This document shows, one piece after another, positions 12,137 to 60,548 of a stretch of DNA of 61,131 nucleotides. The notes beneath the pieces are model-generated. The model did not search any database, had not been told where the DNA came from, and saw only the letters and a program-made list of their open reading frames with translations. Within the stretch, counting starts at the first letter, position 1, and each line of letters starts with the position of its first letter. Position numbers and translations under genes: made by a program. This DNA comes from a virus (Duplodnaviria > Caudoviricetes), in the IMG/VR virus record IMGVR_UViG_3300050343_000196, positions 1-61,131 of that record; one strand, 5' to 3'.

Positions 12137-12438
12137 TGGCAGGAACAGTAAATGCAATGGACGTTGGTAGAAAACGTAAAAAGTCTATTATGGGCAGTTA
12201 CTTTCCTACAACAGAAGAAAGAGCAGCTCATGATTTCTGTATTAGAAATAATATTAGAATATCTTACCAGCCTATATCAACAGGTGCTGCACCAAAAGAA
12301 TGGTATATAACCGTAATTATTGGCCCTTATAAAAAAGGAGAAAAAGTAAATGTATCTCCAGAGTCCTACAAGGCTGTGGAATGCAAACAAATGATGTATA
12401 AAACATGTATGTACTATTATGAGAAATATAGAAGATGA
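12136..12438 (+). CDS. Hypothetical protein
   Basis: ORF. Confidence 0.65.
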   Translation: MAGTVNAMDVGRKRKKSIMGSYFPTTEERAAHDFCIRNNIRISYQPISTGAAPKEWYITVIIGPYKKGEKVNVSPESYKAVECKQMMYKTCMYYYEKYRR

Positions 12439-13252
12439 ATACACAGGTTTAATGTCCGGTATATTACACGGAGGTAAACCTAAAGAAGATAGGACTGGAA
12501 CAGGAACAAGAGCTGTATTTGGTAGAATGTTATACCACGATATGAAGCTTGGGTTTCCTTTACTAACAAAAAAGAAAATTATATTTAATCATGCAAAAAC
12601 AGAATTATTTTGGATTGTCGAAGGCAGAAGCGACTTGGACTATCTTATTGATAACGGTGTCAAGTATTGGATTCCTGATTACCAAAGATCTGGTAGGACT
12701 GATAGAAAACTTGGTCCCGTATACGGTCACCAGTGGCGTCATGCTAATGGCATCGATCAATTACAAGTGGTGCTTCAGGAGCTTAGGGAAAATCCCACCA
12801 GTAGACGACTCATGGTATCAGCTTGGAACGTTTCTGATCTTCACGATATGGTACTCCCTCCTTGTCATTATAACTTCCAGTTATTTTATAACGATGGTAA
12901 ACTGGACTTAATGTGGCAACAAAGAAGTGCAGATGTATTTCTAGGATTACCATATGATATAGCTATGTATGGCTTGTTATTAGAAATGATAGCAGATGGT
13001 GCAGGTTATGAAGCTGGAACTCTTATTGCTAGCTTAGGCGATTGTCATTTATATAACAATCATTTAAAACAAGCGGAAGAGTATATTGCTGCAAAGCAAT
13101 ACGATTTACCCAAACTTAAAATGGAATGGGGCGGTATCAAATTAAGAGAAGGTGCAAATGATTTTGTATTCCTTCCTAATAAAGATACTATAACATTAGA
13201 AGGATATAATCACAGTCCTGCTATTAAAGCAGAATTATCTGTAGGAAAATAA
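12419..13252 (+). CDS. thyA: Thymidylate synthase-family protein with N177D-type specificity change (candidate dCMP methylase)
   Basis: DRTGTGT, GPVYGHQWR, SRR, LPPCH, QRSADVFLGLPYDIA, DCHLYNNH. Confidence 0.9.
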   Translation: MRNIEDEYTGLMSGILHGGKPKEDRTGTGTRAVFGRMLYHDMKLGFPLLTKKKIIFNHAKTELFWIVEGRSDLDYLIDNGVKYWIPDYQRSGRTDRKLGPVYGHQWRHANGIDQLQVVLQELRENPTSRRLMVSAWNVSDLHDMVLPPCHYNFQLFYNDGKLDLMWQQRSADVFLGLPYDIAMYGLLLEMIADGAGYEAGTLIASLGDCHLYNNHLKQAEEYIAAKQYDLPKLKMEWGGIKLREGANDFVFLPNKDTITLEGYNHSPAIKAELSVGK

Positions 13253-16457: not shown

Positions 16458-18191
16458 CGATTGGAAGAAAGGTGTAGACTACCCCTCCTGGGGCGATACG
16501 GACGTGTATAAGAAGACTATAGCTGGTGGTTATCTATTACAAGGTGAATCACCTAAAGACGCTTACAGGAGAGTTTCTAACGCGGTCGCTAGAAGATTGT
16601 ATAAACCTGAACTTGCAGATAAGTTTTTTGATTATATATGGAAAGGGTGGCTTTGTTTAGCTTCACCTGTATTATCAAATACTGGAACTGATAGAGGTTT
16701 ACCTATAAGTTGTTTTGGTATCGATGTTGCTGATAGCATTATGGATATAGGTAATAAGAATCTTGAAATGATGTTGCTTGCAAAACACGGTGGTGGTGTA
16801 GGTCTTGGTGTAAATATGATTAGACCAGCTGGTGCTACTATAGCGGGGAATGGCACTTCAGATGGTGTTGTACCATTCTGTAAGATATATGATTCAACTA
16901 TACTTGCTACAAATCAAGGATCAGTTAGAAGAGGTGCTGCATCTGTTAATATAAACATTGATCACCCAGACTTTTTAGATTGGTTAGAAATTAGAGAACC
17001 TAAAGGTGATGTTAATAGACAATCATTAAATTTACATCAATGCGCAATTATCGGTGATAAGTTTATGAGAAGACTTGAAGAGGGACAGCCTGATGCTAGA
17101 GCTAAATGGAGTAAGTTGTTACAGAAAAGAAAAGCTACAGGTGAACCTTATATAATGTTTAAAGGTAATACTAATAAAGCAAATCCTAAAGCATATAAAG
17201 CTAATAGTTTAAAAGTTCATATGACTAATATATGTTCTGAGATTACACTACACACAGATGAGTCACATTCTTTTGTTTGTTGTTTATCTTCTGTTAATTT
17301 AGCTAAGTATGATGAATGGAAAAATAGTGATCTTATATATGATGCTACTTGGTTTTTAGATGGAGTGTTATCTGAATTTATACAAAGAGCTAAAAATATG
17401 AAAGGCTTTGATAATGCTGTTAGATCTGCTGAAAAAGGTAGAGCATTAGGATTAGGTGTGCTTGGATGGCATACACTATTACAACAAAAAGGTATTGCTT
17501 TTGAAGGATTGCTTGCGCAGTTTAAAACAAGAGAAATATTTTCCCAGTTAAAATTAGAAACTGAGAGGGCTAGTAGAGACTTAGCCGATATTTATGGTGA
17601 ACCATTATGGTGTGTAGGTACAGGAATGAGAAACACACACTTAAGAGCGGTGGCACCAACAGTATCAAATAGTAAATTGTCTGGTAATGTATCACCAGGA
17701 ATTGAACCTTGGGCTGCTAATGTATTTACAGAGCAATCTGCTAAAGGAACGTTTATAAGAAAAATAAAGAACTTGAAAAAGTATTTAAAAAATTAAATAT
17801 AAACACCCAAAAGACTTGGGATAAAGTTCTTAAAGATAAAGGATCTATACAAGGAATAAAAGAATTAGATGGTTACTATTACGATACTACTGGCAAGCTT
17901 ACTCAGGAAAAAAGTGGCGAGCCGGTTAAAAATGTTTTCAAAACGTTTAAGGAAATAAATCAACTAGAATTAGTTAATCAGGCAGGTATAAGACAAACTT
18001 ATGTCGATCAATCTGTAAGTTTAAATCTTGCGTTTCCATCACAGGCTGAACCTAGATGGATTAATAAAGTTCATATGGAAGCTTGGAAGCGAGGAATTAA
18101 AACTTTATATTATATGAGAACTGAAAGTGTTCTTAGAGGCGATATTGCAGCGGAGGCAATGAATCCAGATTGCTTAAGTTGCGATGGTTAG
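16447..18191 (+). CDS. nrdA: Ribonucleotide reductase class I alpha subunit (frameshift near 17760-17795)
   Basis: SPVLSN, PISCF, GGGVG, TNICSEI, VCCLSS, APTVS; continues in another frame through DQSVSLNL, KTLYYMR to CLSCDG*. Confidence 0.92.
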
Positions 18192-18378
18192 TTTTGTTTT
18201 GTTTATTAATATGAAGGGAATCTAAATTCTGGTTCCCTTTGTATTTTATAGTGTTCCAAGGCCAAGTCTTGTCTAACTTATTTACAACTGTAGATTTTAT
18301 ACTGTAACAAGACGTAAACACCATAAGCACTAAAACAATTACAATCTTTTTATATAATGCTATACGTTGCTCTTCCAT
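18133..18378 (-). CDS. Putative lipoprotein next to the endolysin (spanin candidate; 3' end uncertain)
   Basis: KKIVIVLVLMVFTSC lipobox-like. Confidence 0.5.
   Translation of the reverse strand: MEEQRIALYKKIVIVLVLMVFTSCYSIKSTVVNKLDKTWPWNTIKYKGNQNLDSLHINKQNKTNHRNLSNLDSLPPLQYRL
18213..18240. terminator. Hairpin at the convergence of the two transcription arms
   Basis: GAAGGGAATC/GGTTCCCTTT stem, T-rich downstream on +. Confidence 0.55.
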
Positions 18379-18811
18379 TAATCCTTGTAGCTTTTAAGCA
18401 TCTATTTCTATTCTGCTCTTCAGATACATAACTTATATGTACCCAATCCGGGTTATCATCTGTACCAAACTCCCAAATCATTTGATCAAAGTTTAAATTT
18501 TCTTTAATATATTCATACATCTCAGCATTGGTTTTATGACCAAATGTATCATCTATATCTATAGCCCTACCATCACAGTGTTGTGATCTAGAACTTCCAC
18601 CTATAGCTTTATTCAAATCTATTGATCTATAAAAAGAATTAATTTTTATTGGTCCACCAACCCATTCACGTAAAGGTTCAAATATATTATTTGCAACACC
18701 AGCCATATTTCCTAAATGATATTCTCCTGGAGAATTATCAATGTTCAATCTCATAGCTGTGTTTGATTTAACACCTTCCTTATATGATATATGCTTACTT
18801 ATCCTTTCCAT
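18350..18811 (-). CDS. Peptidase M15 family endolysin
   Basis: INSFYRS..LNKAIGGSSRSQHCDGRAID..FDQMIWE..WVHISY. Confidence 0.9.
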   Translation of the reverse strand: MERISKHISYKEGVKSNTAMRLNIDNSPGEYHLGNMAGVANNIFEPLREWVGGPIKINSFYRSIDLNKAIGGSSRSQHCDGRAIDIDDTFGHKTNAEMYEYIKENLNFDQMIWEFGTDDNPDWVHISYVSEEQNRNRCLKATRINGRATYSII

Positions 18812-18812
18812 A

Positions 18813-19088
18813 CTACTTTCTTCTTTTAGTGTTTGATACTCTTCTAGGTTTACCAGCTGGTTGGCCTAACCTTTTCTTCTCTCTTATTTTTTTAGCTTTT
18901 TCAGATGAACTCATTTCAGATGCAGTCTTTACTGTTTTACTGGATACACGTTTACTAGGCCTACAATAAGGCGTACCTCTTTTTTCACCCTTTGTTCTAC
19001 CGCAAGGTTTACCTGTACGCACATCAACCCACTTTTCTTTAAACCAGCGTTTAAGATTAGCTCCTGATTTTGTTTTTCTTACAGCCAT
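18813..19088 (-). CDS. Conserved small basic phage protein
   Basis: LKRWFKEKWVDV..KPCGR..PYCRPSKRVS. Confidence 0.75.
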   Translation of the reverse strand: MAVRKTKSGANLKRWFKEKWVDVRTGKPCGRTKGEKRGTPYCRPSKRVSSKTVKTASEMSSSEKAKKIREKKRLGQPAGKPRRVSNTKRRK

Positions 19089-40720: not shown

Positions 40721-43138
40721 TTATTTAGGCTCAAACTGCTCTAAGCCAAATCCTCCTAAGTTGTCAAATCCTGCTGATTCAAACTTTTTTGGTGGTTTAT
40801 TATTTTTTCTTTGATCTATTAATTCAGATTGCTGAGAAGCCTGTATTTTAGTTCTTTCATCTTTCCTATCTTCTTTACTTCTCTTTATCTTTAATTACAT
40901 TTAAATCAGCGTCTTTAAGTTGCATGTTCATTTCAAATTCTTTTTGCATTAACATCATTTTAATTTCAGCTTCTTTTTCTAGTTTTTGTGTATCTAATTG
41001 CGCTTGTACTTGTGCTAACTGAGCTTTACTCTGAGTTATTGCTTGTTGTTTTTGAATATCAGCTTGTGCTGCTGCTTGAGCTGCTTGCGCATTAGATTGA
41101 GTTTGCATTTGAATATTTCCTTGCTGCTTAGCTCTATCTTGTTCAAACTTTTTGTTTTCTTCTTAATTTTAATAATTGATTAGCAAGTTTTAAATTTCTT
41201 ATTTCTCTAATATCAATAGCATCTTCTAAATTAATTTGTTCTTTTTGAAGAGACACTTGTATATTATTTTCAAGTAATTGTTTTTCTTCTTCATCTGGAG
41301 TTAATTCTAAAAATATACCAAAATCATGAAGCTGTAATTTACTTATTTCTTCTAATGTGGCAACATTTGATTTACCAATAGCTTGTATAAAAGATTTTCG
41401 TGTTGGGCTAAATTCTAATACATCTGATATTCTAAGTGATATTGCCTCAGCTGTTTTTAACGTAAGGTATAATCCCCCTTGTAATATATGCCTTGTTGCT
41501 GTATTTGAATTTGCAGCTGCGATTTTTTGTAATCCTACTAAAGCATTTTTATCTGGCGTTGAACCATCTCTTGCTTCGTTTAATCCGGTCACATCTCTTA
41601 TCATTTGTAAATAATAATTATATGAATTAATTAAACTTGATATTTTAGCATTAGACCCAGATGATTGTAATTCTTGTACAGGAACTTTACCGTTGTTAAA
41701 TTCACCATCTTGTGTCATTGATCTACCAATAACAGAACCTGTTTGGAAATACATATTTAATGCTTCTTGCGCATTATAATTAGTTCCATTACCTAAATCT
41801 ATTTCAGCAATACCGTCTGCATCTAAGTAAACACCATCAGGAACCATTCTTGATAATACCTGTTGTAACTTTAAATGTGTTAATTGAATCATATCTGCAA
41901 ACGTAGTCATTCTACTAACAAGAGATTCAACTCTACCTTTATATATTCTTGGTGCTACAATATTATAACTAAACTGGGCTTTAACTGTATCTGACTTTGG
42001 TCTTGTCATGTTTTCAGCTAATTGCCATTTTAATAATTTATTAGTACCAACTATCTTAGCACCCTCATAAATTACCTCTATTGTTCTTGATTCTTTAGTA
42101 AATCTACTTCTGGAATCTTTTGGAGGATTAAAGCCGTCATCTTTTTTAATAGCTTTCGATGCCCCTGATGAAGTTTCTTTTATTTTATGTACTTGATCTT
42201 TATATGTTTTATATTCAAAATACAATACATATACATGAGAATTATCCTCACTGTCATTACCTGCATAAGATTTATTATATAGTTTAGCATTTGTTCCTTG
42301 CCCCTCTACATCTCTTCTTATATCTTCATCTGTTAATTCAGGATATTGCTTTTTTAAATCAACTACAGATACTTTTCTTATTTCACCTACATAATATATA
42401 TCATCAAAGTGTGGTGACTCTGTGTATGAATAAACTAAATCAGCTGGATCTACATACTTTATATTTATTCCCTCTGATGTTGTATATTCGTTTTTAACAG
42501 CACCCATACCAATAACAGCTATATCATAATCTAATCTTTTCTTTATTAATTCATATTTATTATGATCAAATACATTGTTAATAGCTTCTTCTTCTGCTAT
42601 TTCAACAGAATCTTTATAATCTAAGTTGCATATGCAATTGCAACTCTTCTTCGTTTCAGGTAATTTATCTTTATCATGTTTCATATAAATTAATACCAAA
42701 TTCTTTTTAAAACAGAATCAGAAAAGTTTTTAGTACGCATATCTTTTAATAAAGACTCTACATAATCTGTTCTTTTTTTACTGATGCTGGATCTTGTGAA
42801 TACGCTTTTATATCATATGTTCTTTCTGCAATACCATTTACTACAATATCTACAAACTTAGGTATAATAGGAACAGGTTTCCAATCTATGTTTAAATATG
42901 ATAAATCACCATTAATAGATAATTCGTCTTTATATTTCTGTATTGACTGTTCACCTCTAGCATATAATCTTAAACGGTGAAAATTGTCTCTATTAGCGTA
43001 GTACCTAGCTGTACCAGAATCTCTTTTAAACCATTCTGATTCAACTGCCCTTGCAATCTCTAAACCATATTTTTCACTTGCTTTCTCAGCATTTGAAACT
43101 GCTTGGCTTGGGAATACACCCTTTGGTAATATATTCAT
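40721..43138 (-). CDS. Portal protein (frameshifted)
   Basis: Fragments 42758..43138, 41143..42699, 40875..41108; DWKPVPIIPKFVDIVVNG; RDVTGLNEARDG; Gln-rich C-terminal barrel. Confidence 0.82.
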
Positions 43139-45358
43139 CTATTTTATTATTTTTGAAATACTTCCTTTGTTATTATATTTTTTTAATCCAAAATCTAAAA
43201 CTTTTGTTTGTTTTAATTGTTTTGGTTGGTACAAATGTCTGTTACAAGCCATTATAGCAAGACCAGAACTTATTGCGGCATCATGTTTTGTTCTATTATT
43301 TATGTTAAATTTAGACCAATCGTTTAACGTTGCATTGAAATATATATTACCGTAATCTCCATTTTCCTGTAATCCTACATATTTATCTATATATGATTCA
43401 ATTGCTGCAGCGTGAATTTGTTTCATATCTTCAGATGAATTAGGTATACCTCCTATTTCTTTTTCAGCTGTTGATAATTTACTTATTGTTTTATCTGGAC
43501 GATTCATAGAGTAACCTCTGTAACCTCTTCTTTTTAAATAATACAATAATCTTGGTTTGTTGTTCTCCGCAAGTATTGGCATTCCATAAAACACTAATGC
43601 CATAAGCACATCTTCAAAAAACATTTCAGCGGTTTGTGGTCGAGCTATATACTCTAAAAAGAATGAATTAACAGGTGCTTCTTCCATGCTAAATACTGTT
43701 AACCCGTGTAGCGCTCCTTTAGATCCTCTTCCATCTGTTGTTCCTGATATATCATAAGAGTCACAACCAAATGCACCTATATGCTCGTTACCTGGATGCT
43801 TGCGCCCATTTTTTACTATTACGCGGTTTTGAAGATTATAACTAGGAACCCAAGATATATTAAATCTTCCTTTTGGATCTGGTGTAAATATTACTCTTGA
43901 ATCTTTAATACCATTTTCCCATTGGAAGTTACCTTTAGATACAGCACCAGACGTTACTGTCCCATCATTGTAATCTATTTGCTCATATATTTTTTGTAAA
44001 TTAAATATACTATTTTTTGTTTCATCTCTAAACGCGTGTTCTTCTGTTCTTGGAAACTGTCTATAAAATTCGTTTAATCCGTCTTGATCATTTCTTAACC
44101 CATCTGCTTCATTCTCCCAGTGTTCAATTACTCCAACATCGATTTTATCACCTTGGGGTCCTTCGACAGCAGCTCCGGGTGTATCGAATACAGGTAATCC
44201 AAAAGAATCAATGAATCCCTCGTAGTTCCACTCCATAGGTATGAACAAACTATATAGTCCGCTGCTAGTCTGTCCGTTGCGGTTTCTTTTTGTAACATCT
44301 GAGTCATTGTATAATTTTTTAAAGTTATCACCACCTTTGTCTAAGGCATTTGAAGTAGATCCCATCATACACTTACCAATTATTCTACTTCCTAATCTCA
44401 GCGTTGTTTTAGTTACTCGCCAGTTGTTTAATATATTATCTGGTCTTTCCCATTTACCAGATTCATCGTGAACAAGTAATCTTAACTTTTCACCATCATA
44501 AGAGTTATCACCTGTGTTTTTCCAGTCTATCGTTGTATCGAGCCCGTCGAGGTCTTTCCTCCCTGCGGAGCCGGTTGTACTGGTGATGGACTTCCTTGTG
44601 AGTTTGGATGCTGGGACACGGTAGGCAAGCTCTGTCTTGGGGCGGTCCATTCCATCTTGTATTGGTTTGAAGAAGAATGGATAGTGCGATGAAATTGGGA
44701 CGACCTTGTCGGTAAACATCTTCTTTGCATCGCTACCAGTCTTCGATAAGATTCCGAATCTAGCATCTGAAGTGAGTGTAGCTTGATTAACTGTCTCGCT
44801 GCTTGACATGAAGCTAAATCCAGACCGTCTGTTCTTAAGGTAGCATATTCCATAACATCTTTGATCTGCCTTGCATGCCTCCCAGAATATGAAGAATAAT
44901 CTGTTTGCTTCTCGAAAGTCTGGCTTCCCAACATCAATCTTGGACCACTGCAGGTAATTGTAATGAGAGCCAGTGATATAAGTATCAATCCCTTTATTGC
45001 GGAACCAATACCCCTCTTCTCTTCTAGTAAACTCTTTATCAATGTACCCATACCAATCTTTTTTAAATTCTTCTGGGTATGTTTGCCAGTCGAATATAGT
45101 TCTTATGTTTTTTAACTCTTTAGGGTATTCTGTTGCAACCCATTTGTTATCCTTGCTATACACATCTTCAGCTAATGGTAAAGCAATCTTTAGGTTTTGT
45201 ATTTCGTATACATCACCAATCTTACCTGTTTTACTTATAACAACTACATCATGTTCTTTGTTATATCCGTATTCCCAGTATTTCTTTTTATTCAGTCTAT
45301 GTATCGTTGTACGCTTAATAGGTTCAATGATTTTGTATAATGTTTGCTGATATGACAT
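43139..45358 (-). CDS. terL: Terminase large subunit
   Basis: KNRRSGFS Walker A, LLVHDESGKW Walker B, GSTSN, FGCDSYD and HDAAIS nuclease motifs. Confidence 0.9.
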   Translation of the reverse strand: MSYQQTLYKIIEPIKRTTIHRLNKKKYWEYGYNKEHDVVVISKTGKIGDVYEIQNLKIALPLAEDVYSKDNKWVATEYPKELKNIRTIFDWQTYPEEFKKDWYGYIDKEFTRREEGYWFRNKGIDTYITGSHYNYLQWSKIDVGKPDFREANRLFFIFWEACKADQRCYGICYLKNRRSGFSFMSSSETVNQATLTSDARFGILSKTGSDAKKMFTDKVVPISSHYPFFFKPIQDGMDRPKTELAYRVPASKLTRKSITSTTGSAGRKDLDGLDTTIDWKNTGDNSYDGEKLRLLVHDESGKWERPDNILNNWRVTKTTLRLGSRIIGKCMMGSTSNALDKGGDNFKKLYNDSDVTKRNRNGQTSSGLYSLFIPMEWNYEGFIDSFGLPVFDTPGAAVEGPQGDKIDVGVIEHWENEADGLRNDQDGLNEFYRQFPRTEEHAFRDETKNSIFNLQKIYEQIDYNDGTVTSGAVSKGNFQWENGIKDSRVIFTPDPKGRFNISWVPSYNLQNRVIVKNGRKHPGNEHIGAFGCDSYDISGTTDGRGSKGALHGLTVFSMEEAPVNSFFLEYIARPQTAEMFFEDVLMALVFYGMPILAENNKPRLLYYLKRRGYRGYSMNRPDKTISKLSTAEKEIGGIPNSSEDMKQIHAAAIESYIDKYVGLQENGDYGNIYFNATLNDWSKFNINNRTKHDAAISSGLAIMACNRHLYQPKQLKQTKVLDFGLKKYNNKGSISKIIK
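44527..45051 (-). CDS. Candidate overprinted lipoprotein inside terL (+1 frame)
   Basis: 174 stop-free codons; KGLILISLALITITC lipobox-like; Pro/Ser/Gln tail; visibly GC-enriched segment. Confidence 0.45.
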   Translation of the reverse strand: MGTLIKSLLEEKRGIGSAIKGLILISLALITITCSGPRLMLGSQTFEKQTDYSSYSGRHARQIKDVMEYATLRTDGLDLASCQAARQLIKLHSLQMLDSESYRRLVAMQRRCLPTRSSQFHRTIHSSSNQYKMEWTAPRQSLPTVSQHPNSQGSPSPVQPAPQGGKTSTGSIQR

Positions 45359-45633
45359 TATTTAGACCTTTTTTCTGCAAATCCACTAAAAGCTTTTTGT
45401 TTATCTTGTGGTTTGTTTTCCAGCATTGCTTTTTCAGATTCAATCCTATTTAGTATTTCAAAAGCATCAAAGATAGCTAACTTTTTAGTTGCTGCTGCAT
45501 TCTTTAGTCTATCTGCTGCTAATTCATCTGCTGCATCTTCCACTATGATTTCTTCTTCAGCGACTTTGATTAACTCCTTTACAGCTTTATAACCAGCTCG
45601 TATTATAGAGTTTTTCTGTTCCTTTGTGTTCAT
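45358..45633 (-). CDS. Probable terminase small subunit
   Basis: Small helical protein directly upstream of terL. Confidence 0.5.
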   Translation of the reverse strand: MNTKEQKNSIIRAGYKAVKELIKVAEEEIIVEDAADELAADRLKNAAATKKLAIFDAFEILNRIESEKAMLENKPQDKQKAFSGFAEKRSK

Positions 45634-46171
45634 ACTTTATTGAAATATCATTTAATTTTATTCTATACAATCTTTTATCACCGACTATAAATTCAAATTC
45701 AGAGTACGGTGTAAATCCAACAAGCTCACCTTCGTTTACAAAATCAGAGCCGTCTGTATAAACCACAATACCTTTTAAAGGTTCTTCTTTGTTTTCCCAT
45801 TTATCTTCTGATTGTATGGGATTTACAAAACAGTAACCTGGCATTGCTACCCAGTTTTCATTTCTTTTATACATGTACACTTGATCTAAATAACAAAAGT
45901 ACATATCTTCTTTGAAATAATTACCACTATTTTTTTCAATTCCTCTAACATCGTAGTACCTTCTAAATATATTATGATGCACCATTACTTCATCAGACTC
46001 TTGTAGAGGCGTTTTAAACGCACCTGGGAGCGCTTTTACTATTGCTTCTTTACTTACATACCTATGGTCACTAATCGACGTGTTTAGGATTAAGTTTTTA
46101 TCAGATACTTTTTTAGTGTTTTTGTAGCGGTTTTCTTTTGGTTGTATTATTAAAGCGTATGGATTATTCAT
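45587..46171 (-). CDS. GroES-like fold protein (apparent tandem domain)
   Basis: IIQP..LILNT..AIVKALP..DEVMVHHN and FVNPI..GIVVY..EGELVGF..F.V...RLYRIK..DI. Confidence 0.5.
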   Translation of the reverse strand: MNNPYALIIQPKENRYKNTKKVSDKNLILNTSISDHRYVSKEAIVKALPGAFKTPLQESDEVMVHHNIFRRYYDVRGIEKNSGNYFKEDMYFCYLDQVYMYKRNENWVAMPGYCFVNPIQSEDKWENKEEPLKGIVVYTDGSDFVNEGELVGFTPYSEFEFIVGDKRLYRIKLNDISIKYEHKGTEKLYNTSWL

Positions 46172-58751: not shown

Positions 58752-59002
58752 TCTACTATAACAACGTCTTGCTGTTTAATTACGATGTATGTTTGGTTGT
58801 CAAATATTATTTCGTGCCCAGCGTTTCTATCATAATGTATAATATCACAACATTTAATAGCTTCTGTTTTCTCTCCAATTGAAACAACCTCACCTTTCAA
58901 ATACCTAAACTCAGCTTTATCATCTTTCATAATAAAACCAGAGTCGGTTTTCTTTTCTTCTTTTATACCTTTTATTATTATGTAATTATTTACCGCTTTC
59001 AT
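58748..59002 (-). CDS. groES: Co-chaperonin GroES
   Basis: KKTDSGFIM mobile loop, GEVVSIG, position after groEL. Confidence 0.85.
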   Translation of the reverse strand: MKAVNNYIIIKGIKEEKKTDSGFIMKDDKAEFRYLKGEVVSIGEKTEAIKCCDIIHYDRNAGHEIIFDNQTYIVIKQQDVVIVE

Positions 59003-60548
59003 TTATTCTTATATTTGAAATTACACAATCTGCTGATAATATAGTTGTCGCTACACTTATTGCATTTATTAATGCTGTTTTAGTAACTAACACTGGATCT
59101 ATAATACCTTCTTTAATTAGGTTAACAGATTTACCTGTTACAACGTTTACCCCGTGGCCTTCTTTCATATTTGGTCCGTACGCTATATGAGCATTTGCCA
59201 GTATGGTCTTATATGGAGCTTTTACAGCGTCTAATAATATTCTTTCAGTAACAACATCTGTCTTTACTGTATCGGCTGCGTTATGGAGCGCTATACCAGC
59301 TCCGGGAACTATTCCTTCTCTTAGGGCTGCTTTCGTCGCATATATTGCATCTTCCACCCTGTCTTTCTTTTCCTTTAGCTCTACTTTACTATTAGCACCA
59401 ACTTTTATAACACCAACAGCTCCTGATAACATTGCGAGTCGTTGTTCAAGCTTCTTTTTAATAAACCCGTTCTTTTCCTCTGCGATCTTCTTTTTAACTG
59501 CATCGATTCTATCATATGCCGCTTGCGGCATTTTTTTTATAGTGATGACTGTATTGTTGTCATCTGTAACCGACTTTATTGCTTCACCTAAACAACTAGG
59601 ATCTATTAAATCCATATCATCTCCGAGATCTTCGGAAATTATTTTTGCTCCGGTTATTGTCGCTAAATCTTCTATCGTATCTTGCTTGGTCGCGCCAAAC
59701 CCGGGCACATCCACTACATTCACTTTAATGTTACCCTTTACTTTATTCATTATAAGAGCAGATAAAGGTTGCTGATCGAGCTGTGCTACTATAAGCAGGC
59801 TTCTCTTCTCTTTTATAACGTGTTCTAGTATTGCTTGTATCTTTCTTACATTCGGTACCTCTGAGGCTACTATAAGCACATATGGATTATCAAGTTCCGC
59901 TTTACTCTTTTCTTTGTCAGTAATAAGGTGCTGCGATTTGAGTCCTGAATCGAATTGTACTCCATCTACGATTTCAACGTACGTGGTCTCGTCGTCAGAT
60001 TCCTCCATCAGTACAACACCATCTTTACCGACTTTTTTATAAGCGTCAGCTATTATATCTCCAAGATCGGTGTCGTTATTTGCAGAGATCGCTGCGACGC
60101 TGTTTAACATTTCATCTGATACCTCTATTTTGATCTTCTCTAAATAGTCTAGTATCTTACTCTTTGACTTCGCTATACCTTGTTTAATGTATCTTAAATC
60201 TACATCAGCATGCTTGTCACATTCTTTTAAGATGGCTGAAGCTAGGACAGTCGAGGTAGTGGTTCCATCTCCAGCTTCTTTTACTGTTTTCTGTGCTGCT
60301 TCTTTAATAAGCGTAGCCCCTATGTTTTCCACGGGATCTAATAGTACAACAGAGTTTGCAACAGTTACACCATCTTTGGTGATTACGGGTTTACCTAACG
60401 CATCTTCATATATGACACATTTTCCCGATGCACCTAAAGTTGATTCTACGGCATCCGTCAGTTTGAGGACACCTTTCATTATTTTTTCCCTTGCATCCGT
60501 TCCGAATGACAGGTTCTTTACTATCTCACTTGGGTTATTGAATTCCAT
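58986..60548 (-). CDS. groEL: Chaperonin GroEL
   Basis: ITKDGVTVA, GDGTTT, ISAN, EKKDRVEDA, GIVPG, GIIDP. Confidence 0.95.
   Translation of the reverse strand: MEFNNPSEIVKNLSFGTDAREKIMKGVLKLTDAVESTLGASGKCVIYEDALGKPVITKDGVTVANSVVLLDPVENIGATLIKEAAQKTVKEAGDGTTTSTVLASAILKECDKHADVDLRYIKQGIAKSKSKILDYLEKIKIEVSDEMLNSVAAISANNDTDLGDIIADAYKKVGKDGVVLMEESDDETTYVEIVDGVQFDSGLKSQHLITDKEKSKAELDNPYVLIVASEVPNVRKIQAILEHVIKEKRSLLIVAQLDQQPLSALIMNKVKGNIKVNVVDVPGFGATKQDTIEDLATITGAKIISEDLGDDMDLIDPSCLGEAIKSVTDDNNTVITIKKMPQAAYDRIDAVKKKIAEEKNGFIKKKLEQRLAMLSGAVGVIKVGANSKVELKEKKDRVEDAIYATKAALREGIVPGAGIALHNAADTVKTDVVTERILLDAVKAPYKTILANAHIAYGPNMKEGHGVNVVTGKSVNLIKEGIIDPVLVTKTALINAISVATTILSADCVISNIRINESGK

Follow-up and report, generated by a model that had tools for sequence, protein, structure and literature searches.

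The window analyzed here is the complete 61,131-base virus record IMGVR_UViG_3300050343_000196 of IMG/VR, in which the plus strand carries the early genes and the minus strand a long block of late genes. The late block includes the gene for the terminase large subunit (terL). Inside terL, on the same strand and starting 307 nt into the gene, is an open reading frame (ORF) in the +1 frame, which is the longest same-strand nested ORF of the window (Table 1). A reading made from the letters alone, hereafter the sequence-only reading, had reported this ORF in terL, and it was found exactly there. TerL itself was identified with a PHROGs profile search, in which phrog_6681 (“terminase large subunit”) gave a full-length match (E=1.1e-162 over residues 26–736); a Pfam search returned no family for it at E≤0.01. 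The overlap covers the TerL motif KNRRSGFS, which we take to be Walker-A-like. The comparisons described below indicate, with a probability that we put at about 0.85, that the +1 frame is a functional coding frame overprinted on terL.

Homologues were collected in two ways. A tblastn search of GenBank phages with TerL matched 87 records, the best being MW202828 (62% identical); other matches were to Flavobacterium “elemo” phages (45.6%) and to Cellulophaga, Tenacibaculum and Maribacter phages. IMG/VR yielded more than 600 stretches that matched, of which the best 80 (74–94% TerL identity) were used. The codon alignment thus comprised 82 terL sequences: the window, 80 IMG/VR relatives and MW202828. 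Codon numbers for terL are given as 0-based indices throughout, and the TerL residue number is the index plus one. Sequences were classed by their longest open stretch in the +1 frame, using arbitrary thresholds, as ORF-bearing (at least 150 codons; 41 sequences), ORF-less (fewer than 100 codons; 31 sequences) or intermediate (10 sequences). The 41 of 82 that keep at least 150 open codons reach down to 74–75% TerL identity.

In the terL gene of the window, the +1 frame contains 46 stops in total and none between codon indices 84 and 276. When synonymous codons were resampled from the rest of the gene, 10.8 stops were expected in the ORF, and none of 3000 draws was as low as observed. When synonymous codons were permuted within the ORF region, such that GC content and codon usage were kept, 3.7 stops were expected (P=0.002). 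This single-sequence permutation test was run on 20 of the 82 sequences. Segments of 174 codons were also slid along terL (n=20). The two that hold nearly the whole ORF reached P≤0.01 in the +1 frame, two that partly overlap it gave values of 0.026–0.034, and the remaining segments gave 0.06–0.84; values for the +2 frame were 0.49–0.98 everywhere. Across the alignment, with no pre-selection, 39 of 82 sequences had no +1 stop in codons 108–255, where 0.007 stop-free sequences would be expected from rest-of-gene codon usage or 0.205 from permutation of each sequence’s own region. The distribution of +1 stops was bimodal, with 39 sequences at zero and a second mode at 4–6. In ORF-bearing sequences the +1 frame held 0.03 stops per 100 codons, compared with 9.3 in the +2 frame and 3.4–9.8 in the three antisense frames.

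An ORF of this kind could be a chance by-product of a GC-rich, stop-poor patch of terL that was inherited from a single ancestor. GC content is indeed locally raised (0.48–0.51 at 44475–44699 vs about 0.25–0.40 around it), stop codons are AT-rich, the +2 frame too has somewhat fewer stops there (9.3 per 100 codons vs 13.3), and the sequences share ancestry. Permutation of own codons nevertheless still expects 2.5–5.9 stops per sequence and 0.2 stop-free sequences among the 82, against the 39 observed. The GC content at third codon positions (GC3) of the window’s terL, taken in 25-codon bins, was 0.36–0.68 in bins 100–275 vs 0.08–0.40 in the bins outside (0.08–0.32 in all but 3 of these 23), and such a rise is found only in sequences whose +1 frame is open. 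These measurements bear out the C/G-ending terL codons that the sequence-only reading had remarked on over the ORF. Synonymous sites have also diverged between lineages: at 4-fold degenerate sites of ORF-bearing tails, the median pairwise identity was 0.378 vs 0.278 for unrelated draws (820 pairs), which is near saturation, and eight ORF-bearing lineages are mutually below 0.45 at such sites. ORF-less relatives carry 4–10 stops. A chance origin is strongly disfavoured on these grounds, and we regard it as the least likely of the explanations considered.

Because the nested frame is +1, every third base in the terL reading falls at the middle position of a nested codon. TerL is highly conserved across the overlap (mean pairwise identity 0.86–0.88 vs 0.76–0.77 in the rest of the protein), and ORF-less lineages therefore serve as a control with the same TerL residues. 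At Leu index 135, which gives the invariant nested Cys, the third base was G in 41 of 41 ORF-bearing sequences and A16, G8, T5, C2 in ORF-less ones, with codon entropies of 0.71 and 2.39 bits, respectively. At the preceding codon, Tyr index 134 (nested Thr), the third base was C in 40 of 41 ORF-bearing sequences compared with T18, C13 in ORF-less ones. The third bases at Ile index 140 were T38, C3 vs A16, T12, C3, and those at Val index 142 were T31, C7, G3 vs A22, T8, G1 (nested Leu in both cases). At index 130, where TerL has Thr or Ser in both groups, T was used by 40 of 41 ORF-bearing sequences. Over indices 121–159 as a whole, codon entropy was lower in ORF-bearing than in ORF-less sequences (Mann–Whitney U test, P=1.1e-4; 24 conserved degenerate columns vs 289 outside), and five of the six outlier columns fall at indices 125–152. 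Over indices 160–275, ORF-bearing sequences were more variable than ORF-less ones (P=3.9e-4), with no site-specific synonymous constraint. These comparisons of synonymous variability were made without phylogenetic correction.

Although the tail varies freely from site to site, ORF-bearing sequences avoid the synonymous codons that would make a stop (TTA, ATA, GTA etc.) at every risky tail codon. At Leu 173, Val 189, Leu 243 and Leu 272, ORF-less relatives favour exactly these stop-making codons. Third-base usage in ORF-bearing sequences shifted from T toward C (0.235 in the ORF region vs 0.135 outside) and G (0.19 vs 0.14), and ORF-less sequences showed no such rise in the region. Avoidance of stops, together with the choice of C or G for a hydrophilic tail, explains the C/G-ending codons described above. 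The proposal that a second frame constrains this part of terL is thus supported by both the absence of +1 stops and the synonymous constraint at the N-terminal segment. The sequence-only reading had also stated what would speak against it, namely frequent +1 stops and ordinary synonymous variability in homologues. The proposal withstood this check: half of the homologues keep an open +1 frame, and synonymous sites are constrained at the signal-like segment.

Constraint on synonymous sites need not be coding, and an RNA structure, a pac or other DNA-binding site or a translation-speed signal could in principle fix these sites and raise GC content, leaving the open frame as a side effect. The site-specific conservation is limited to about 40 codons, a usual size for a cis element, and packaging sites are found inside the terminase genes of some phages (in small-subunit genes). 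An element of that size would leave unexplained the avoidance of stops over a further 115 or so freely varying codons, its restriction to one of five alternative frames, the placement of T exactly at the hydrophobic run and of C/G at the hydrophilic tail, and the conserved ATG. We consider a non-coding origin of the pattern very unlikely.

The ATG itself is retained in ORF-bearing sequences. An ATG is present within +1 codons 94–109 in 40 of 41 ORF-bearing sequences vs 21 of 31 ORF-less ones, and it lies 28–40 codons before the Cys codon in 39 of 40 homologues. The 61-nt interval around the start is weakly structured, the median minimum free energy being -3.1 kcal/mol in ORF-bearing and -5.0 kcal/mol in ORF-less sequences (one-sided Mann–Whitney U test, P=0.012, uncorrected for relatedness). 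These observations bear on a further possibility, a programmed frameshift by which a ribosome on terL would shift to the +1 frame, so that the TerL N-terminus is fused to the +1 sequence. In its favor, 21 of the 41 ORF-bearing sequences have no +1 stop before the ATG back to about codon 80–85. The other 20 have a +1 stop at index 105, directly before the ATG at 106/107, and the ATG is kept in 40 of 41; no slippery motif was noticed, although no search was aimed at one. Frameshifting is accordingly most improbable as the source of the open frame.

Table 1. Positions of terL, of the nested ORF with its parts, and of two genes of the lysis region in the 61,131-base window.
Feature	Position	Strand	Remarks
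terL (terminase large subunit), older host frame	43139..45358	minus	739 aa; phrog_6681 match
Overprinted +1-frame ORF	44527..45051	minus	ATG start, 174 aa plus stop; overlaps TerL residues 103–278
ATG start, window type	45049..45051	minus	many relatives use an ATG 4–5 codons downstream
Positively charged n-region, residues 1–20 (ends in K20)	44992..45051	minus	net charge median +2, range 0 to +5 (n=41)
13-residue uncharged hydrophobic stretch, residues 21–33, GLILISLALITIT	44953..44991	minus	T fixed at terL third positions
Invariant Cys34 ending the hydrophobic stretch	44950..44952	minus	41/41 ORF-bearing
Juxtamembrane motif C-S-G-P-[RK]-L-[MT]-L-G ... E-K-Q-T-D-Y-S-x-Y-S-G-[KR], residues 34–58	44878..44952	minus	lower synonymous entropy
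Fast-evolving hydrophilic basic tail, residues 59–174	44530..44877	minus	open frame, no site-specific constraint
TerL low-complexity stretch TSTTGSAGRK	44555..44584	minus	TerL residues 259–268; overlaps the nested ORF at its Pro/Ser-rich C-terminal end
Endolysin	18350..18811	minus	phrog_894, E=5e-27
81-aa ORF, canonical lipobox FTSC	18133..18378	minus	directly after the endolysin, 29-nt overlap; flagged by the same lipobox scan as used for the nested protein

The N-terminus of the predicted nested protein reads ...AIK-GLILISLALITIT-C34, in agreement with the basic-hydrophobic-Cys signal that had been described from the letters. Ahead of the Cys, 35 of 41 sequences have 13 uncharged residues, four have 12 and two have 11; the mean Kyte–Doolittle (KD) hydropathy of this stretch is 2.43 in ORF-bearing sequences vs 1.31 for the same frame of ORF-less ones. 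After the Cys, the 41 sequences have S/N-G-x-[RK]-L/S and then a conserved E-K-Q-T-D-Y-S-x-Y-S-G-K. The tail that follows has a mean KD of -0.52 vs +0.35 for the same frame when unconstrained. Nested proteins are 142–192 aa long with a median pI of 10, and the net charge after the Cys ranges from +2 to +19. In the protein of the window, the part after the Cys contains 14.9% S, 10.6% Q and 6.4% P, and the last 60 residues contain 12 S, 8 Q and 7 P. The tail, which had been called rich in Pro, Ser and Gln, is thus rich in Ser and Gln, with Pro concentrated at its end. The invariant C112 and W135 of the nested protein were rejected as evidence; both are forced by Met codons of TerL. On the TerL side, the low-complexity stretch TSTTGSAGRK is present where it had been pointed out, and it falls in alignment columns in which only a few homologues have residues; it belongs to a variable TerL linker that bears insertions and deletions.

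Structure prediction with AlphaFold2 (AF2) was performed using a 40-row alignment, from which L023 was omitted as identical to L022. The mean predicted local distance difference test score (pLDDT) was 46.9; the model was confident only for a helix at residues 4–34, and values were below 50 for 134 of 174 residues, including most of the tail. Such a prediction fits an unstructured tail. The nested protein could be placed in no family by searches of Pfam, PHROGs, NCBIfam, PADLOC and PDB sequence profiles, the sole PDB match having E=0.98, and the best score against the ESM Atlas (0.76) was below the threshold for a lead. The lack of a known family fits a de novo origin. A word-index protein search returned 21 unnamed proteins without Pfam domains, and a profile search listed 150 clusters, 81 of them at E≤1e-30. 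Most likely these proteins and clusters are the same nested ORF as called by gene finders, although free-standing copies among them are possible.

The sequence-only reading had inferred the product to be an outer-membrane lipoprotein, either a spanin or a factor for superinfection exclusion. In more explicit form, the spanin proposal would be an Rz1-like outer-membrane lipoprotein (an o-spanin or a unimolecular spanin, u-spanin) that is hidden in terL, lipidated at Cys34 and active in disrupting the outer membrane at lysis. Several features agree with it. Rz1 is likewise a nested +1-frame gene, a charged n-region with a short hydrophobic stretch and an invariant Cys is present (charge median +2 and 11–13 uncharged residues in 41 of 41 sequences, as for lipoproteins), the tail is predicted to be unstructured and contains Ser, Pro and Gln, and late co-expression with terL would suit a role in lysis. 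The lipobox does not agree. Passages of PMC6139136 give the consensus as [LVI][ASTVI][GAS]C, and none of the 41 sequences has it, the residue at -1 being Thr in 40 of them and Ile in the other. Residues -4 to +1 were ITCTC (13 sequences), TLCTC (12), IICTC (9), ITITC (3), ILCTC (2), TICTC (1) and ITCIC (1). The scan was performed with a PROSITE-like pattern. The same source, in the passages drawn on here (Kongari et al., PMC6139136), describes o-spanins as tolerating deviant lipoboxes, but those it names there (AWAC, LNGC and FVGC) all have A or G at -1. The claim of a lipoprotein is therefore not upheld in its canonical form.

Location and architecture also argue against a spanin. The nested ORF is neither within, overlapping nor beside an i-spanin-like gene, and it is not part of a lysis cassette; its host gene is terL and the endolysin is about 26 kb away. 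The nested protein has one hydrophobic segment only (residues 14–41), so the C-terminal transmembrane (TM) segment of a u-spanin of the T1 gp11 type is absent, and the part after the Cys is about 140 aa long with just 6.4% Pro. The gene has, moreover, been lost in many close lineages. In the window, the lysis region spans 18133–19088 (minus strand) and also holds, preceding the endolysin, a very basic 91-aa protein of phrog_23735 (unknown function). The 81-aa ORF that follows the endolysin encodes a lipoprotein with a canonical lipobox, which also speaks against the nested ORF as a spanin in the window. No counterpart of this gene turned up in any of 10 related records, or next to the endolysin in three ORF-bearing relatives. 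Because the 81-aa lipoprotein is not conserved, the spanin role is not clearly filled elsewhere in these relatives, which counts in favor of a nested spanin. On balance a spanin is unlikely, and the nested protein is not a canonical o-spanin.

Note that the endolysin type of the window was found in 4 of 5 ORF-bearing vs 0 of 5 ORF-less records, a contrast that may reflect clade or coverage, as the two sets are different clades and all records but G006 (100%) are 59–82% complete. The ten records, G001–G010, are those of L056, L076, L078, L077 and L039 and of L019, L022, L054, L063 and L005. Signal-peptide cores typically have about the length of the 13-residue stretch, whereas a stable TM helix would usually be longer, which makes export plausible from the sequence. 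A role in superinfection exclusion, the other function that had been suggested, is possible.

A tree was calculated from the 533 TerL columns outside the overlap. It contains a 28-row clade (support 99) with no ORF-bearing member and a 50-row group with 39 ORF-bearing, 7 ORF-less and 4 intermediate rows, in which the ORF-less rows are scattered; two ORF-bearing rows lie outside both. The ORF-bearing state requires 11 changes on this tree, at least 9 of which are forced by well-supported branches. Five cultured or GenBank relatives (elemoC, phi46:3, phi38:1, Gundel_1 and MW202828) carry 11–14 +1 stops in the homologous stretch, and the nested ORF is for this reason regarded as confined to a group of uncultured marine phages. 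Since outgroups are without it and several lineages have lost or replaced it, the nested gene appears to be dispensable. A free-standing copy of the gene was sought in five ORF-less records (59–75% complete), and in all five the only match was the remnant within terL, with 5–13 stops.

Sequence near-identical to 43100–45700 (0–4 differences per piece) was present in assembled contigs of marine RNA libraries from four studies. In total, 20 runs from 9 studies contain part of this interval, 12 of them recorded as RNA, and the phage or close strains seem to be widespread in seawater samples. Four of these runs were compared in detail, and all four consist of contigs. Among the 11 variants listed inside the nested ORF, none creates a +1 stop, a number too small for inference; a further 18 variants lie beyond this listing.

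Several observations weigh against a functional nested gene, or limit what may be concluded about it. The sequences are related, such that the P values given above are not independent. The permutation null is slightly generous: ORF-less sequences had 172 stops where 219.0 were expected, and 6 of 31 gave P≤0.05. The 10 intermediates keep 103–146 open codons, with 23 stops vs 49.8 expected; in six of these the open stretch starts after the signal-like part (five keep 120–144 codons and L064 keeps 103). The intermediates suggest recent decay, or alternatively an openness of the tail that is partly of other cause. Taken as a whole, ORF-bearing sequences are no more alike in their synonymous codons within the overlap (identity 0.496) than outside it (0.541), and identity is raised only at codons 125–150. 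With regard to expression, no ORF-specific promoter was found upstream: TAnnTTTG, a Bacteroidetes-type promoter motif, is present in 17 of 41 ORF-bearing vs 23 of 31 ORF-less sequences. Contigs from RNA libraries indicate presence only and carry no information on transcription, strand, start or frame.

Two further points concern the fate of the gene and of its product. The ORF-less rows that are nested among ORF-bearing ones (L042, L065, L058, L071 and L048) are closest to ORF-less sequences within the overlap (0.82–0.84 nucleotide identity). In the rest of terL, the sequences nearest to them mostly carry the ORF (those nearest to L071 and L048 are ORF-less). Exchange of segments by recombination, or convergence to AT-rich codons, may have inflated the count of losses; the number of independent losses is uncertain because these rows resemble each other within the overlap. 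As for the product, its hydrophobic stretch of 13 residues plus Cys would make only a short TM helix, and its lipobox departs from the canonical form; the targeting route may accordingly be signal peptidase II (SPII), signal peptidase I (SPI) or an uncleaved anchor.

Taken with these reservations, the nested ORF is probably a real, lineage-restricted and dispensable overprinted gene for an envelope-targeted protein. It would lie on the conserved N-terminal ATPase part of terL, and its carriers would be a single group of marine phages that are uncultured and have Flavobacterium/Cellulophaga podophages as relatives. The gene would be transcribed with the late terL message, and ribosomes would start at the internal +1-frame ATG, as the conserved ATG and the weakly structured start region suggest. 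The N-terminus, with its K/R-rich n-region, 13 uncharged residues and invariant Cys, is under constraint and would act as a Sec-type signal or a membrane anchor. The juxtamembrane motif of 25 residues would then lie outside the cytoplasm, together with the tail of about 115 residues, which is basic and apparently unstructured. What selection maintains in the tail is openness and hydrophilicity rather than a particular sequence. Late in infection the protein may act at the host envelope as an accessory factor, a step that we propose with low confidence. As rough odds for the accessory role, we would assign 35% to superinfection exclusion or receptor masking, 25% to modulation of lysis and 40% to something else. 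A more specific scenario is a gene born de novo in the conserved ATPase region of terL that gives a secreted or lipid-anchored late envelope factor of a new kind by way of a non-canonical Thr-Cys lipobox (an outer-membrane disruptor, or a factor for exclusion or receptor masking), in Flavobacteriia-type marine phages without recognisable spanins; we consider this version doubtful.

Other features of the window were recorded in passing. The portal gene is split in the window (41143–43138, minus strand) into ORFs at 42758..43138 (126 aa) and 41143..42699 (518 aa) in different frames. Both match portal phrog_6547, and in four close relatives (L001, L002, L003 and L005) a single continuous portal ORF spans the split. 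The split in this record is a frameshift; it may have arisen as an error of sequencing or assembly, or it may be a genuine defect. At 59203–59775 (plus strand), a 520-aa late gene (58986–60548, minus strand) contains an antisense ORF of 190 aa with three hydrophobic segments, which may well be a chance product in an AT-rich genome. Another same-strand nested ORF, of 106 aa and with two hydrophobic segments, lies at 12591–12911 (plus strand) inside 12419–13252.

The known system closest in arrangement is lambda Rz1 within Rz. As described in the passages of PMC6139136 used here, each of the two is contained completely within another phage gene, on the same strand but out of frame, and they share an N-terminal export signal that ends in Cys, an unstructured, disorder-promoting region after it, and late expression (all three predicted in the present case). 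In contrast to Rz1, the host gene here is terL, an ATPase/nuclease gene, and not the partner i-spanin; the lipobox is non-canonical and the ORF is outside the lysis cassette; and the part after the Cys is about 140 aa long, compared with 40 aa for Rz1 in that source. Pfam and PHROGs searches gave no sequence similarity between the two proteins.

Lysis protein E of phiX174 is nested in the +1 frame of gene D and has a hydrophobic N-terminal functional part and a basic C-terminus that tolerates change. It resembles the nested protein in being overprinted, in that the conserved part of the latter would be its N-terminal hydrophobic segment, and in the basic, variable C-terminal part. E differs in that it is the sole lysis gene of a tiny single-stranded DNA (ssDNA) phage, whereas the gene considered here is in a 61-kb double-stranded DNA phage with an endolysin, and there is no homology. 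The exclusion lipoproteins Llp of T5 and Cor of T1 and phi80 are small, dispensable and lineage-variable, have a signal ending in Cys and block receptors at the outer envelope. The nested protein is similarly small, dispensable and lineage-variable, with a predicted signal ending in Cys, but Llp and Cor are encoded by free-standing genes and have canonical lipoboxes, and no similarity to them was found in PHROGs, Pfam, NCBIfam or PADLOC.

Overprinted viral genes of de novo origin that encode disordered proteins have been described (Pavesi, PMC8227390; Willis & Masel, 10.1101/229690). The likeness lies in a taxonomically restricted frame over an older conserved one, in disorder-promoting residues and in a composition shaped by the host frame. 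Most documented cases are from small RNA or ssDNA viruses, and the present one is in the terminase ATPase region of a tailed phage. It further differs from documented overprinted genes in having many natural loss lineages as internal controls. In a literature search of limited coverage, no terminase large-subunit gene with an overlapping gene came to light, and papers on the related elemo phages gave nothing relevant.

What such a gene would mean follows from where it lies. Long nested ORFs go uncalled by gene finders, and genes of this kind are consequently missed when phages are annotated; terL, where this one lies, serves as a phage marker more often than any other gene. The ORF is kept by roughly half of the sampled lineages and is missing from the others, so that identical TerL residues act as an internal control for the synonymous choices that the second frame imposes. 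A new protein would have been built with only the middle base of each codon free, T giving a hydrophobic signal and C or G a hydrophilic tail. If the product is made, an envelope-acting accessory protein is added to a widespread group of marine phages. If the reading is true, the many natural losses with return to AT-rich, stop-rich codons would form a series of gene birth, maintenance and death, in which the de novo origin and the loss of a tailed-phage gene can be put to the test. Overprinted phage genes are already known; the host gene and the built-in loss controls are what set the nested terL ORF apart.

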